Positions 22,967 to 26,823 of a stretch of DNA of 52,789 nt are shown here, one piece after another. The position numbers and the translations under genes were made by a program. Source of the DNA: an uncultured Calditrichaceae bacterium (GTDB taxonomy: Bacteria > Calditrichota > Calditrichia > RBG-13-44-9); the NCBI GenBank assembly GCA_964617285.1, contig CAZTXJ010000006.1, positions 1 through 52,789 on the forward strand. Direction: 5' to 3'. The first letter of the stretch is position 1. Each line of letters begins with the position of its first letter. The notes under the pieces are model-generated. The model ran no database searches. It saw only the letters and a program-made list of their open reading frames with translations, and was not told where the DNA came from.

Positions 22967-23890
22967 CTATTTGATTTGTGATGGAAGTGGAAGTTTTATG
23001 CCTTCTATTTTTGTTAATTCTGTGGTAATACTTCCCACGAATACCGCACTTTTCATTTGGACCGGGATTTTATATTTATCATCACTTAACCAGACCCATA
23101 ATTCGCCCTTTTGTTTAAATATGGCTTCTCCTCGTAATTGAGGCTGAACCATAATACATCTGAATTTTCCGGCCTTAACTTTGATAGTTTCTCTCTTTTG
23201 CACGATGACTCTCAAATCGTATACTTTTTTGTTATCGTGATTTGATAAATAAATTGGCATCCCAATTCTTAGCTTTTGTGTTCGGACATAGTAAAATGCG
23301 GCCAGTATATCCAAAACATAAGGAGGAATGTCCACGGTGAAATTTTCCTGCTTGCGAATGGTTAATGAATCATCATCATCATTATATCTGATCATATCAA
23401 CTAAGGCTTTGCCGTTGTATTGATCATAATCCACCAGCAAATCAAATTTATAGGATCCCTCCCTTAACTTCTTGTTGAATTTCCAGGAAAATAAGCCCTG
23501 GGTATCTATGTAGCTTTCCACCCTATCTCTCACCTTGAAGAAAAAGTCAAAAGTTCCGGTAGAGTTTGCGGTTGAGATTATCTCGTAGGCCTCTCGGTCC
23601 CCAATCGGTACTTTCCCTTTTACCTCCATCGTGGCTTCACCAGCCTTGATAAAGCCGTAACGCACGTTAAAACTTAATTTTTCACCCACATGAAATGCAT
23701 TATTATTTATAACGCGGTCCAGTTGTTGAGGAGGTATTATTAGCGAATCATTGTTTGGTGCGGTGGTGGTATCCTGGTTCGAAATTACCTCCGTGCTATC
23801 AGGAATCTCTGAAGCGGAGGATTTGACCATCAGAATGACCGGAAATAAAAATATTAATAATATCCAGAGATATGTTCTAAATTTAAGCAT
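22967..23890 (-). CDS. DUF3108 domain protein (secreted / outer-membrane associated)
   Basis: Signal peptide, then GEKLSFNVRYGFIKAGEATMEV, typical of DUF3108. Confidence 0.65.
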   Translation of the reverse strand: MLKFRTYLWILLIFLFPVILMVKSSASEIPDSTEVISNQDTTTAPNNDSLIIPPQQLDRVINNNAFHVGEKLSFNVRYGFIKAGEATMEVKGKVPIGDREAYEIISTANSTGTFDFFFKVRDRVESYIDTQGLFSWKFNKKLREGSYKFDLLVDYDQYNGKALVDMIRYNDDDDSLTIRKQENFTVDIPPYVLDILAAFYYVRTQKLRIGMPIYLSNHDNKKVYDLRVIVQKRETIKVKAGKFRCIMVQPQLRGEAIFKQKGELWVWLSDDKYKIPVQMKSAVFVGSITTELTKIEGIKLPLPSQIK

Positions 23891-24070: not shown

Positions 24071-25501
24071 TTACTTGGAGGATAATTGATTTTTGATATC
24101 AATTATTAAATTACGGATTGCCGGATTATTTTTCATTTCCTTTTGAATTTTTCGATAGCTATGCAAAATAGCTGTATAGTGGCGGTCGCTATAATGGTAC
24201 CCTATTGATTTTAAAGATTCTCCGGTAAGTTCCTTTGAAAGGAATATTGCAATTTGTCTGGCAAATGTGACTTCTCTTTGCCGGGAATAACCGGTCAGAA
24301 TATCCACTGGAATGTTTAAATATTCAGAAACCGATTTAATGATTTTTTCAATTTTTACAGGTTGGAGGAGATGAAAGGAGCTGTTTTTTTTCGCCCAACT
24401 TACATCAATTTGGCTCAGGATTCGTTTGATATTTGCAATGGAAACTGGTTTGCCAATCAAAGAGGACTGTGCCGCAATCCTCACCATGATGGCTCTCATT
24501 TGTTGAAGACCATCAAAAATAGAGTGACTTAAGAAATCCTTAACTTCTGGTAATATCATTAGATTTGTTTTCTCACAAAAGCTATTGATCCATTGCAAGC
24601 GGGTCTCATAGCTTGGAGGAATTAAATCTATGATTAATCCCTTTTGAAAAAAGGAGAGAAGCCTGGGATCAAATCCAATGAGTTGTCCGGGTGCTTGATC
24701 GGCGGAAATGACGATTTGTTTTCGTTTCCGCTCCATTTCAGCAAAAAAGAAATACAGACCTTCCTGGGATTTTCTTTTGTTGGAAAGAAACTGAATATCA
24801 TCAATTAATAATATATCGTTTTTCTGAAAATTATTGGTTAATAAGTCCAGTTTTTTGGATTGAAGTGCGGAAATATATTCATTTAAGAAATTTTCGCTGC
24901 TTAAGTATTGAATTTTTTTTCGTTTTTTATTTTCACTGATATTATTACCAATGGCATATAACAAATGAGTTTTACCACATCCGGAAGAACCATAAATAAA
25001 GAGGGGGTTAAAATCTGTTTTGCCTGGATTTTTCGCGACAGTTTGTGCTGCCCGTAGTGCTAATTCGTTATCATTTTTAACAATGAAATTTTCGAAATGA
25101 TACCGAGAATCCAGATTTTGATCGGAATCATCTGTTTGTACATTTTTTTCTGCGATCTGATCATCCGGTGCCTGAAAATCGCTGAGTGCAGCGATGGGTT
25201 TATCCGGTGTGGAGGCGACCAGATATTCTATTTTTGTCCTTAAACCGTATATTTTTTTTACTGCTTCAAGCACTTTATCCTGATAATGTGTTTCTAACCA
25301 TTCAAAGAAAAATTGAGAGGGTACTCTTAATATGAGGATTTCATCTACAAAACTAACCGGGATAATTGGGGAGAGCCAAGTTCGAAATCCTTGAGGAGAT
25401 ATCTCATCCTTGATGAGTTCTAAACATTTCTTCCACTTTTGCTGGAGGCTATCTTGGGAGAATTCGGGATCCGTAATAGGCCGTGCTGAAGATTTCGACA
25501 T
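24071..25501 (-). CDS. dnaA: DnaA-family protein (full length, four domains) with non-canonical key residues
   Basis: Domain I FRTWLSPI; Walker A GSSGCGKTHLL; Walker B LLIDDIQFL; box VII DPRLLSFF; C-terminal HTH ...SDRHYTAILHSYRKI. See findings for the substituted Arg finger, sensor II and box-contact residues. Confidence 0.8.
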   Translation of the reverse strand: MSKSSARPITDPEFSQDSLQQKWKKCLELIKDEISPQGFRTWLSPIIPVSFVDEILILRVPSQFFFEWLETHYQDKVLEAVKKIYGLRTKIEYLVASTPDKPIAALSDFQAPDDQIAEKNVQTDDSDQNLDSRYHFENFIVKNDNELALRAAQTVAKNPGKTDFNPLFIYGSSGCGKTHLLYAIGNNISENKKRKKIQYLSSENFLNEYISALQSKKLDLLTNNFQKNDILLIDDIQFLSNKRKSQEGLYFFFAEMERKRKQIVISADQAPGQLIGFDPRLLSFFQKGLIIDLIPPSYETRLQWINSFCEKTNLMILPEVKDFLSHSIFDGLQQMRAIMVRIAAQSSLIGKPVSIANIKRILSQIDVSWAKKNSSFHLLQPVKIEKIIKSVSEYLNIPVDILTGYSRQREVTFARQIAIFLSKELTGESLKSIGYHYSDRHYTAILHSYRKIQKEMKNNPAIRNLIIDIKNQLSSK

Positions 25502-25841
25502 GAGTTACAACATTCCTCCTCTTTAACAGGTACAGTAATTCTGAATACGGCTTACAAATTTATTTGAAACCTAAATAATGGCAGACTTTAAAGAACAAAT
25601 GATACCTTCGCGGTGAAACATTGTATAAAAAAATTTTATGAAAAACAAGCGAGTTAAATAAAAAAAATCAATTTTTTAGTTTCACGTTAAACAGGAAGTT
25701 GTAAGTTCTAAGAAATCAACAGTATCAAAAAAATGTAATTTTTCTTGAAAATATTTTGTTAAAAAAAATGAAGCCATTTGGTTTAAATATTTTTAAATAT
25801 TATATTCTAAACTTATTTTTTAAATAAATGGAGTAAGACAA

Positions 25842-26036
25842 ATGGCTAAAGTATGTGAAATTTGTGGAAAGAAACCAATATACGGTAATAATGTAAGTCA
25901 CGCTAATAACAAAAGAAGACGCCGTTTCGAACCAAACCTGCAAAAAATTAGAGCGGTGATTGACGGGAAAAACAAAAGAATTACAGTTTGCACCAGTTGC
26001 ATTCAGGCTGGTAAAGTGACTAAAGCTGTACATTAA
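25842..26036 (+). CDS. rpmB: 50S ribosomal protein L28
   Basis: [34 protein letters not shown] is a typical L28 N-terminus. GGAG RBS. Confidence 0.95.
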
Positions 26037-26381: not shown

Positions 26382-26410
26382 TTGCTTAATTTTATTTCTT
26401 TTACTATAAT
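26382..26410 (+). promoter_or_regulatory. putative sigma70-type promoter
   Basis: TTGCTT (26382-26387), a 17-nt spacer, then TATAAT (26405-26410). It would give a roughly 113-nt leader for the acidic ORF. Confidence 0.35.
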
Positions 26411-26529
26411 TCGAGCCAATAATAAGGCATAATCGTTTGTAAAATAGCTGAACTAGAAAAATAGATCAGGATGAGGAGTTATTATTTTTTCGGACATGTT
26501 GACATCTCGAACTAATATTGGAGGATTTG

Positions 26530-26823
26530 ATGGAATCTAGCGGTCGCATTGGATCACGAGTGGTTGGGCAAGATGATCCAATGTTTAGAGATATATGTGA
26601 ATTATTAGAATTGGATGCTGAGAGTGTTGAATATTTGGTGATTGAAGATTTTGAAGATGTTGATTACATGATGTTTGAAGAATTTGAGGATATGGAAGCT
26701 GAAGAAGCCTGGAAACCCGAGCAAAGAGTTATCGAAATATTTTTTAATGACGGTACTCGCGATGAGATCGAAATTGATCTTGATTCAGAAATAGATGAGA
26801 TGCTGAAGCGGTTCTTAGGTTAA
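26530..26823 (+). CDS. hypothetical highly acidic small protein (97 aa)
   Basis: GGAGG lies 5 nt upstream of ATG 26530. About one third of residues are D/E (EDFEDVDYMMFEEFEDMEAEEAW). No family recognised. Confidence 0.55.
   Translation: MESSGRIGSRVVGQDDPMFRDICELLELDAESVEYLVIEDFEDVDYMMFEEFEDMEAEEAWKPEQRVIEIFFNDGTRDEIEIDLDSEIDEMLKRFLG

Follow-up and report, generated by a model that had tools for sequence, protein, structure and literature searches.

The locus examined here raises the question of whether a full-length DnaA homologue that lacks the arginines used to sense and hydrolyse ATP can be the replication initiator of its host. The gene lies in a window of 52,789 nucleotides, the whole stretch of DNA that was analysed, from an uncultured Calditrichaceae bacterium (GCA_964617285.1, contig CAZTXJ010000006.1). 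An initial annotation, made from the sequence alone, had noted the absence of the arginine finger, of the sensor-II arginine and of half of the DnaA-box base-contact residues. It proposed either an initiator with a non-canonical box and a non-canonical ATP switch, or a DnaA paralogue recruited to another function. We find that the observation is correct, and that the interpretation is partly supported, with the evidence favouring the first alternative. Coordinates of the features discussed below are collected in Table 1.

Table 1. Features of the dnaA region, with positions given in the window
Feature	Position	Strand	Description
dnaA	24071-25501	-	Coding sequence, 476 aa, four domains
Domain I	25217-25447	-	aa 19-95, followed by an unstructured linker
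Domain III	24407-25114	-	AAA+ domain, aa 130-365
Domain IV	24074-24352	-	DNA-binding domain, aa 384-476
Walker A	24968-24991	-	P-loop G171-T178 (GSSGCGKT), intact
Walker B	24797-24802	-	D234 and D235
Box VII helix	24650-24664	-	R280 (Ec R281, retained) to F284 (Ec R285, arginine-finger position)
Start of sensor-II helix	24494-24505	-	Q333 (Ec R334 column) and, one turn later, R336 (Ec E337 column)
DnaA signature of the helix-turn-helix	24161-24181	-	H441-Y442-T443...H447, where E. coli has D433-H434-T435...H439
Imperfect palindrome	25679-25692	-	GTTTAACGTGAAAC, 178 bp upstream of the dnaA start codon
Putative dnaA promoter (inference only)	25620-25648	-	TTGTTT (25643-25648), 17 nt spacer, TACAAT (25620-25625)
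DUF3108 gene	22967-23890	-	Protein with a signal-peptide-like N-terminus, downstream neighbour of dnaA
rpmB	25842-26036	+	Ribosomal protein L28, divergent from dnaA

Identity of the protein and its altered residues

To establish the identity of the protein, it was compared with curated profiles and known structures. Pfam DnaA_N, Bac_DnaA and Bac_DnaA_C (PF11638, PF00308 and PF08299) all match full length, and TIGR00362 scores 393.7 bits against a cut-off of 343.9. The best PDB matches by sequence and by fold are all DnaA, and domain III of an AF2 model (pLDDT 79.9) superposes on domain III of T. maritima and B. subtilis DnaA with TM 0.92–0.93 and rmsd 1.7–1.9 Å. Related AAA+ initiator/loader families gave only weak hits, with scores far below their cut-offs: 86.5 against 194.8 bits for Hda (TIGR03420), the DnaA-related RIDA factor, 54.2 against 200 for IstB (NF038214) and 22.3 against 357 for DnaC (NF005931). 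These proteins share the fold of the clade but lack domains I and IV, which are present here.

The altered positions were then located in a MAFFT alignment with E. coli K-12 DnaA (from NC_000913) and 120 homologues. Here Ec R281 = R280, R285 = F284, R334 = Q333, E337 = R336, R399 = R407, P423 = K431, D433 = H441, H434 = Y442, T435 = T443 and H439 = H447, so that every residue number in the initial annotation is right; codon positions were also checked. A phmmer alignment to B. subtilis DnaA (8btg) has no gaps in these regions, pairing 'rlrsrf' with 'rllsff', 'nirelega' with 'glqqmrai' and 'ggrdhttvih' with 'sdrhytailh'. Walker A (GSSGCGKTHLL, 171–181), Walker B (LLIDDIQF) and the domain I motif FRTWLSPI are present, as the initial annotation had stated. 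The AF2 model places helices at residues 279–287 (box VII) and 332–349 (sensor II).

We considered whether the substitutions could be an artefact of misalignment, sequencing error or pseudogene decay, and found nothing in favour of this. Three independent alignments agree without gaps at the motifs, the same residues recur in over 100 sequence clusters from independent samples, and the identical protein is found on four other contigs. The reading frame is intact, with 65% mean column identity across the core family. This explanation is therefore refuted.

Two refinements to the initial annotation are needed. Of the six base-specific DnaA-box contacts (R399, P423, D433, H434, T435 and H439; PMC2533591 and PMC7561715, citing Fujikawa 2003), it counted three as changed. 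However, Lys at Ec P423 is the normal residue in canonical DnaAs of the FCB group (61 of 63), so relative to its relatives the protein differs at two positions, not three, and R399, T435 and H439 are kept. D433H alone also occurs in 12 of 118 canonical DnaAs. Secondly, further family-specific losses had been missed, namely Ec K273, K309 and K397 and, in most relatives, the sensor-I Asp (Ec D269), which gives tight ATP/ADP affinity and which the window protein retains as D268.

Distribution of the substitutions

To determine whether the substitutions are peculiar to this protein, 115 related sequences (51 core and 64 deep members) were compared with 118 canonical DnaAs. At the arginine-finger column the family has F 89, L 13, I 7, T 4, S 1 and V 1, with no Arg, and at sensor II it has H 85 and Q 30; both columns are Arg in 118 of 118 canonical DnaAs. 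At the sensor-I column only 12 of 115 keep Asp (N 75, S 15), against 118 of 118. A further 77 DnaAs translated from genome loci are likewise 100% R, R and D at these three positions. The Ec E337 column is R or K in 51 of 51 core members, variable in deep members and E in 117 of 118 canonical DnaAs, the Arg found here being specific to the core sub-family. In the DNA-binding signature, H-Y occurs in 51 of 51 core members and [HTNS]-H in deep members, whereas canonical DnaAs have D-H in 103 of 118 and none has Tyr at 434.

Other functional residues are retained. The P-loop Lys (Ec K178) is present in 115 of 115 family members and T179 is T or S. Ec D235 is D in 107 and E in 8, and D236 is D in 105 and N in 10, these Walker B changes occurring only in the family. 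Domain I W6 and F46, the initiator-specific ssDNA-binding residues V/I211 (H motif) and K/R245 (B motif), K243, AID-2 L290, and R399, R407 and Q408 (Ec numbering) are kept at canonical frequencies; the window protein has I210, K244, K242 and L289 at the corresponding positions of domain III. The overall signature is that of relaxed hydrolysis with binding kept, as inferred from sequence. Five conserved basic residues were lost across the family against three gained, the latter being columns that became K/R in 86–97% of the family and are 0–6% K/R in canonical DnaAs.

In an NJ tree the family is monophyletic with no canonical sequence inside it, with a stem length of 0.33 and tips about twice as long as those of the sister group. 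An exhaustive profile search of 1.84 billion representatives found 12 representatives, all finger-less, followed by a drop to canonical DnaAs. The named canonical sequences are Marinimicrobia/Neomarinimicrobiota, the Bacteroidetes/Chlorobi group and Eisenibacter, i.e. FCB neighbours, as vertical descent predicts. Marinimicrobia/Neomarinimicrobiota and other FCB-group DnaAs score highest among canonical sequences (445 bits) and have Lys at Ec P423. They share the box-VII context 'SRFQSGLVVD' where the family has 'SFFQKGLIIDL', the 'FQSGLVVD' context of Marinimicrobia DnaA being derived. They nevertheless keep R285, R334, D269, K309, K397 and D433-H434, and at 31–35% identity are no closer to the family than any other canonical DnaAs. 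A singleton, P0236, with a family-like domain IV but both arginines, looked like an intermediate but is equidistant (about 35%) from the family and from canonical DnaAs.

Every named family member is Calditrichota, Calditrichia, Calditrichaceae or Caldithrix sp., and no canonical hit carries such a name. The cultured type species, Caldithrix abyssi, never appeared by name or with a UniRef source among the family hits, so the trait is not shown for the isolate. A search through the conserved DUF3108 neighbour yielded a 'Calditrichaceae bacterium' MAG with a finger-less DnaA and the palindrome described below, but not C. abyssi. Literature searches for Calditrichota or Caldithrix combined with dnaA or origin, and for natural finger-less DnaAs, found nothing relevant.

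Genomic context

The gene sits in one conserved chromosomal position. A DUF3108 gene (Pfam, E = 7.5e-47 in the window) lies directly downstream of dnaA in every family locus, core and deep, that extends past the 3′ end of dnaA. In the core loci the arrangement is comM – acidic ORF – rpmB – dnaA, and rpmB (Pfam Ribosomal_L28) is also conserved upstream of dnaA in two further loci, L089 and L215. Between the same genome pairs the DUF3108 protein is 52–72% identical where DnaA is only 35–64%, with DnaA diverging faster in all 21 pairs compared. No synteny was found with the closest canonical DnaA (P0179). DUF3108 lies about 2.5 kb downstream of canonical dnaA in three loci from Cytophagales-type MAGs (Aquirufa, Flectobacillus, Spirosomataceae), which is too weak to argue positional orthology, and no shared genes flank the canonical loci that would assign them taxonomically. 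A scan of a genome collection with peptide patterns from the family alignment, which also match Bacteroidota, returned at least 3 family loci.

The gene evolves unusually fast for a DnaA, which speaks for the possibility that it is a second, specialised paralogue, for example a transcription factor or regulator of initiation, coexisting with a canonical DnaA that is the real initiator. PGAP names some members only 'DnaA/Hda family protein' or 'ATP-binding protein'. However, all 10 or more DnaA-type proteins with a Calditrichota-type name are finger-less, the nearest canonical DnaAs come from sister phyla and not from the same phylum, and the retained features needed for helicase recruitment and ssDNA binding would not be required by a pure transcription factor. 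No second DnaA lies within 10 kb in any locus or in the window, and genomes with two dnaA genes are rare. As these comparisons rest on loci rather than complete genomes (one family locus, L006, comprises 21 kb of a 4.06 Mb MAG chromosome, CP070707.1, which carries the family gene at about 1.537 Mb), the paralogue reading is unlikely but not excluded.

Upstream sequences and the search for an origin

The initial annotation had specified that its reading would fail if all DnaA proteins of the lineage shared these residues and still used TTATCCACA boxes. The first part of this condition holds, but the second finds no support. Allowing at most 1 mismatch, TTATCCACA occurs upstream of dnaA at 1.27 per kb in 74 canonical loci against a background of 0.32 per kb, a 4-fold enrichment, whereas in 10 family loci it occurs at 0.18 per kb against 0.32. 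In the window there are 18 hits against 16.4 expected, with none between dnaA and comM. A candidate box identified by eye, TTATCARGTTAAG, in the gap between rpmB and the acidic ORF is not conserved in other loci, the conserved part of that gap being only a sigma70-like promoter for the acidic ORF.

No origin was found in the window or in 12 related loci. Repeat and k-mer searches of all upstream gaps found no repeated boxes of any kind near dnaA, and Rfam and tRNA scans of the intergenic regions gave nothing. None of the 10 family loci shows an origin-type GC-skew switch at dnaA, against 26% of canonical loci, and in the window the genes converge on the dnaA region. The lack of a recognisable origin, with no box clusters and no origin-type skew or gene-orientation switch, is in keeping with the paralogue reading.

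The only over-represented k-mer in the upstream gaps (z up to 15) is a single-copy, invariant 14-mer, GTTTWACGTGAAAC, without clusters of its half-sites. It occurs exactly once, in the dnaA orientation, ~170–260 bp upstream of dnaA in all 14 family loci that include upstream DNA and in 0 of 80 other loci, and is also present in L215 (169 bp upstream) and in locus L172. A metagenome scan for TGTTTAACGTGAAACT was uninformative: at least 78 loci were chance matches of mixed GC content and at least 2 were family dnaA loci. The putative dnaA promoter would place the palindrome centre at about −72. CTTG..TTT and a TATAMT-like hexamer are conserved in an alignment of seven dnaA–rpmB intergenic regions, although a generic promoter scan did not single out this site.

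Interpretation

We consider, with moderate confidence, that this gene is the orthologous chromosomal dnaA of a Calditrichota bacterium, in a lineage whose DnaA has kept its architecture and DNA-handling parts (domain I, the P-loop, the ssDNA-binding motifs, part of the oligomer interface and most helix-turn-helix backbone contacts) but has lost residues that couple oligomerisation and turnover to the γ-phosphate of ATP. These bacteria would thus probably start replication without the classical DnaA-ATP switch. In the most likely mechanism, the protein would still bind nucleotide but would no longer read ATP versus ADP between protomers, and would hydrolyse ATP poorly or not at all. Filament assembly at the origin would then rely on nucleotide-independent, partly hydrophobic AAA+ contacts and on the DNA sites, with initiation controlled by something other than the DnaA-ATP/ADP cycle, for example the level of DnaA. 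A strictly conserved operator-like palindrome upstream of dnaA fits control at that level, and the His-Tyr signature predicts a box that differs from TTATCCACA. The analysis itself demonstrates the substitutions, their fixation across the lineage, the conserved synteny, the retention of other functional motifs and the absence of canonical box clusters near dnaA; everything concerning biochemistry, including nucleotide handling, box binding and origin unwinding, is inferred, as is the status of this gene as the only dnaA in the genome.

There is precedent for both arginine losses in E. coli. The lethality of DnaA(R285A) is suppressed when the low-affinity oriC sites are converted to bind either nucleotide form (oriC-allADP), so that they no longer need ATP-dependent cooperative binding (PMC6727663). 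R334 is needed for ATP hydrolysis (intrinsic, RIDA and DDAH) but is dispensable for forming functional initiation complexes (PMC5742627). Those are engineered single mutants in a genome that otherwise depends on the switch, whereas here both losses, and more, are fixed naturally across a lineage, and the finger is replaced by a conserved hydrophobic residue and not by Ala. On the other hand, in four species from different phyla alanine substitution of the finger abolished strand separation even where ATP was not needed (PMC8287927), which favours the paralogue reading; a finger-less initiator would need compensation, for which no source has been identified.

It is also possible, though unlikely, that the protein is the sole initiator and still runs an ATP switch with relocated or substitute residues. 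His or Gln at sensor II, both able to hydrogen-bond to phosphate, or R336 one helical turn later, would read the γ-phosphate in cis, and another basic residue (K287, R150 or R258, which with R336 are family-specific) would act in trans. The strong constraint on the P-loop Lys and Walker B, the restriction of the sensor-II column to two residues, the K or R at the R336 column throughout the core and the three gained basic columns speak for this. Against it, none of the candidates in or next to box VII or the sensor-II helix is conserved across the whole family, R336 and K287 being variable in the 64 deep members. The finger column is described as strictly hydrophobic (4 Thr and 1 Ser aside), Walker B D236N, the classical hydrolysis-dead type of change, arose repeatedly, and more conserved basic residues were lost than gained.

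The DnaA-ATP/ADP switch and its arginine finger, called invariant in the literature (PMC8287927), are treated as universal features of bacterial replication initiation. A lineage that has replaced the finger, mostly by Phe, and has also lost sensor II, three conserved lysines and, in most members, the sensor-I Asp, while keeping the rest of the initiator, is a natural experiment bearing on what DnaA-ATP is actually needed for, a question that reviews still debate (PMC6727663). In practical terms, annotation pipelines already downgrade some members, and origin predictors that look for TTATCCACA clusters next to dnaA are likely to fail in this phylum. More tentatively, Calditrichota would be a free-living bacterial lineage whose only DnaA initiates replication with no ATP-sensing arginine finger and no sensor-II arginine, a natural initiator free of the ATP switch, its filament held by hydrophobic contacts, recognising a new DnaA box, and its timing set by DnaA abundance through the GTTTWACGTGAAAC operator and not by a DnaA-ATP/ADP cycle. 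If this is the only dnaA in these genomes, the ATP switch is dispensable in nature, and the lineage would also point to an alternative oligomer interface, an alternative DnaA box and an alternative way of timing initiation.

Identification and domain composition of the DnaA homologue

The ORF on the minus strand encodes a protein of 476 aa, in which Pfam models identified DnaA_N (aa 21-82), Bac_DnaA (aa 130-292, full length), and Bac_DnaA_C (aa 384-452, full length). The NCBIfam DnaA equivalog, TIGR00362, scored 393.7 bits against a cut-off of 343.9, whereas the Hda, IstB, and DnaC models fell far below their cut-offs. The best matches by sequence in the PDB were all DnaA proteins, from B. subtilis (8btg, 1e-73), T. 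maritima, and A. aeolicus. In an AlphaFold2 model (pLDDT 79.9), domains I, III, and IV were predicted with confidence, and the predicted domain III could be superposed on domain III of T. maritima and B. subtilis DnaA with TM 0.92-0.93 and rmsd 1.7-1.9 A. The coordinates of this gene and of the surrounding features are collected below.

Coordinates of dnaA and associated features in the window and in related loci
Feature	Location	Coordinates	Strand
dnaA	window	24071-25501	-
DUF3108 gene	window	22967-23890	-
14-mer imperfect palindrome	window	25679-25692	-
Acidic ORF, 101 aa	window	26518-26823	+
TTGCTT-17-TATAAT promoter of the acidic ORF	window	about 26384-26412
14-mer imperfect palindrome	locus L006	9809-9822
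14-mer imperfect palindrome	locus L086	9727-9740
14-mer imperfect palindrome	locus L089	9822-9835
14-mer imperfect palindrome	locus L090	9819-9832
14-mer imperfect palindrome	locus L094	9745-9758
14-mer imperfect palindrome	locus L215	8153-8166

Residues at the ATPase and DNA-binding positions

The initial annotation had described a full-length DnaA homologue lacking the arginine finger, the sensor-II arginine, and half of the residues that contact the bases of the DnaA box. To examine this, E. coli K-12 DnaA was taken from NC_000913 and aligned with the window protein and 120 homologues. Every residue assignment that had been made was found to hold, and the codons were verified. A phmmer alignment to B. 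subtilis DnaA likewise contained no gaps around the three motifs, and the sensor-II block is anchored on both sides (I..., R-[VI], SSL), so Q333 cannot be shifted onto an Arg.

Equivalent residues in E. coli DnaA and the window protein
E. coli residue	Window protein
R281	R280
R285	F284
R334	Q333
E337	R336
R399	R407
P423	K431
D433	H441
H434	Y442
T435	T443
H439	H447

Published work confirms that R399, P423, D433, H434, T435, and H439 are the base-specific contacts (PMC2533591, PMC7561715). One correction to the initial annotation is needed, however, because Lys at the position of E. coli P423 is the normal residue in canonical DnaAs of the FCB group (61 of 63). D433H alone occurs in 12 of 118 canonical DnaAs, whereas Tyr at the position of H434 occurs in none. 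A group of otherwise canonical DnaAs (proteins P0207, P0211, P0212, P0218, P0221, P0222, P0225, P0228, P0230, and P0232 of our search set), with R285 and R334 intact, carries R399N together with D433H in domain IV and represents another natural variant of the part of DnaA that reads the box.

Distribution of finger-less DnaA across a lineage

To establish whether these substitutions were confined to a single gene, protein databases were searched with the window protein. The first search returned 58 relatives (36-99% identity), all of which lack both arginines, followed by canonical DnaAs at about 34% identity. A profile built from the most distant members found about 45 more clusters, again all finger-less, with a sharp break to canonical sequences. 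Residue counts were then made over 115 family and 118 other full-length sequences.

Residues at three ATPase columns in the family and in other DnaAs
E. coli column	Family (115)	Other DnaAs (118)
R285	F 89, L 13, I 7, T 4, S 1, V 1	R 118
R334	H 85, Q 30	R 118
D269	N 75, S 15, D 12, and others	D 118

DnaAs translated from 77 non-family genome loci likewise all carry Arg, Arg, and Asp at these columns, and those of 14 family loci are all finger-less. An exhaustive HMMER search of 1.84 billion cluster representatives gave 12 family representatives (479-685 bits), all finger-less, and then canonical DnaAs. P0252 (673 aa, from an ENA contig of 2.7 kb) is a longer DnaA-like protein with Leu at the arginine-finger column and Ser at Walker-B D236 but with Arg at sensor II, and may be an independent finger-less DnaA homologue outside the Calditrichota family. 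P0236 (484 aa, from a Logan contig of 5.7 kb) is a singleton that keeps both arginines but has Leu at sensor I, Glu at the position of E. coli R281, and a family-like S-H-A-F..Y signature; it is about 35% identical to both the family and canonical DnaAs.

In an NJ tree, the 113 finger-less full-length sequences (≥420 aa) that were used are monophyletic, with nothing canonical inside; the stem is 0.33, and the tips are about twice as long as those of the sister group. The H-Y "core" group, which contains the window protein, is a monophyletic subclade of 51. The order of events can be read from the deep members, which already lack R285, R334, and mostly D269 but still have His at the E. coli 434 column. 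The core group then fixed F285, H433-Y434, and Arg at the E. coli 337 column.

Wherever a source gives a name, it is Calditrichota, Calditrichaeota, Calditrichia, Calditrichaceae, or "Caldithrix sp. RBG_13_44_9," with one exception. A deep-family finger-less DnaA (P0143) and a DUF3108 protein (P0522) both list a longest contig of 55,742 bp and so appear to lie on one contig, and the DUF3108 hit comes from a MAG labelled Aliifodinibius sp. (Balneolales) at NCBI. Either this bin is mislabelled, which is probable, or the family extends beyond Calditrichota. Several family members (P0175, P0419, P0420, and P0422) are named only "DnaA/Hda family protein" or "ATP-binding protein" by the NCBI pipeline, and in those MAGs no gene may be annotated as dnaA at all.

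Genomic context and probable orthology

The initial annotation had left two alternatives, namely an initiator with a non-canonical box and ATP switch or a DnaA paralogue recruited to another function, and these were examined first by synteny. The arrangement comM, then a 97-aa acidic ORF, then rpmB, then dnaA, then DUF3108 is found in the window and in five core loci (L086, L087, L088, L091, and L092); in L006, the comM gene was not detected by the same search. In four deep loci, including that of a "Calditrichaceae bacterium" MAG, the order is a GWxTD protein (with or without rpmB), then dnaA, then DUF3108. The acidic ORF is extremely acidic, has no Pfam match, and is conserved between comM and rpmB in the core-family loci that include that region; in the window it has its own strong promoter, and its fixed position near dnaA may be coincidental. 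The DUF3108 protein, which has a signal-peptide-like N-terminus, is the constant neighbour directly downstream of dnaA across the whole lineage, in all family loci that extend past the 3' end of dnaA. A DUF3108 gene also lies about 2.5 kb downstream of canonical dnaA in three loci from Cytophagales-type MAGs (Aquirufa, Flectobacillus, and Spirosomataceae: L067, L068, and L075).

The nearest canonical DnaAs in the exhaustive search are from Marinimicrobia/Neomarinimicrobiota, a "Bacteroidetes/Chlorobi group bacterium," and Eisenibacter. These are FCB neighbours, as expected for vertical descent, and the Marinimicrobia protein shares the derived box-VII context. No canonical hit carries a Calditrichota name, and no second dnaA lies in the window or within 10 kb in any locus. 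These points, with the conserved synteny, favour orthology, but they do not prove that the genomes lack a second dnaA, and the isolate Caldithrix abyssi never surfaced among the family hits. Also in favour of orthology, features needed by an initiator but not by a mere DNA-binding regulator are kept at canonical frequencies, namely W6 and F46 of domain I, V/I211 and K/R245 (ssDNA binding), K243, and L290 (roles from PMC5742627).

Changes in the ATPase

In addition to R285, R334, and D269, the family has lost three basic residues that are conserved in other DnaAs: E. coli K273 (86% Lys/Arg elsewhere), K309 (100%), and K397 (91%). It has gained Lys/Arg at three columns where canonical DnaAs almost never have it, E. 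coli 41, 152, and 259, which correspond to R59, R150, and R258 in the window protein. Walker A position 2 changes from Gly to Asp, Glu, or Ser, and Leu176 changes to Cys. Walker-B D236N (10 of 115) and D235E (8 of 115) occur only in the family, whereas the P-loop Lys is invariant, and R281 is kept in 75%. This is the pattern expected when nucleotide binding is retained but gamma-phosphate sensing and hydrolysis are no longer under selection.

DnaA also evolves faster than its DUF3108 neighbour in all 21 genome pairs compared (35-64% against 52-72% identity, for example 37% against 62%). Divergence within the family equals that among canonical DnaAs drawn from many different taxa (mean distance 0.90 against 0.91).

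DNA recognition and the origin

Canonical boxes are not clustered anywhere in the window. As a control, 74 canonical loci were examined, in which TTATCCACA (at most 1 mismatch) is 4-fold enriched in the 1.1 kb upstream of dnaA (1.27 per kb against 0.32 per kb), with 19 loci holding two or more. In 10 family loci it is not enriched (0.18 against 0.32 per kb), and none holds two or more. Because 74% of canonical loci also have one box or none, the contrast is only about p = 0.05.

None of the 10 family loci shows an origin-type GC-skew switch at dnaA, against 26% of canonical loci. Across the window (1-52789), cumulative GC skew rises to about 27-29 kb and then falls, and genes on both sides point towards the dnaA-comM region, which is a terminus-like or purely transcriptional pattern and not an origin-like one. 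The origin is therefore probably elsewhere in the genome. The gene content of the window is otherwise ordinary housekeeping (sdhAB, pyrRBC, dnaK-grpE, asnA, thiI, pnp, ribF, truB, infB, nusA, and rimP), with no dnaN.

A conserved element upstream of dnaA

The 14-mer GTTTWACGTGAAAC occurs once, in the dnaA orientation, ~170-260 bp upstream of the start codon. It is present in all 14 family loci with upstream DNA, across protein divergence down to about 36%, and in none of 80 other loci; it was also found in the family loci L215 and L172. It is the only over-represented word in the upstream gaps. The element is an imperfect palindrome (12 of 14 positions) lying about 37 bp upstream of a conserved TTGTTT-17-TACAAT promoter-like pair. 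From its sequence and position alone, it has the look of an operator for a dimeric regulator, although binding by DnaA itself, as a site for autoregulation, is possible. It is single-copy, and its half-sites are not clustered anywhere.

Implications for initiation

The observation made in the initial annotation is thus confirmed and is extended from one protein to a lineage. Its interpretation was supported in part: the first of its two alternatives, a non-canonical initiator, is the better supported, whereas a paralogue remains open but unlikely. No report of such a DnaA was found in the searchable literature, and the finding is of real interest to the replication-initiation field.

In E. coli, R285 links protomers through bound ATP and is essential for ATP-dependent activation, R334 drives hydrolysis but is dispensable for building the initiation complex, and sensor I gives the tight nucleotide affinity (PMC5742627). 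DnaA(R285A) becomes viable when the low-affinity oriC sites are converted into sites that bind either nucleotide form (PMC6727663). On the other hand, arginine-finger alanine variants of B. subtilis, S. elongatus, H. pylori, and D. radiodurans DnaA fail in strand separation even where ATP is not required, and the finger is described as invariant (PMC8287927).

The substitutions, their fixation across the lineage, the conserved synteny, the retention of other functional motifs, and the absence of canonical box clusters near dnaA are what the analysis demonstrates, whereas nucleotide handling, oligomerization, DNA binding, the role in initiation, and that this is the only dnaA in the genome are inferred. 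His or Gln at sensor II, R336, and the new basic residues leave room for a residual or relocated ATP sensor, but none of the candidates near box VII or sensor II is conserved in the deep half of the family. In view of the published mutants, the Calditrichota protein most plausibly assembles through a remodelled interface that does not depend on nucleotide, with a conserved hydrophobic residue where the finger was. It would act on an origin whose sites do not need ATP-dependent cooperativity, and initiation would be controlled by other means.
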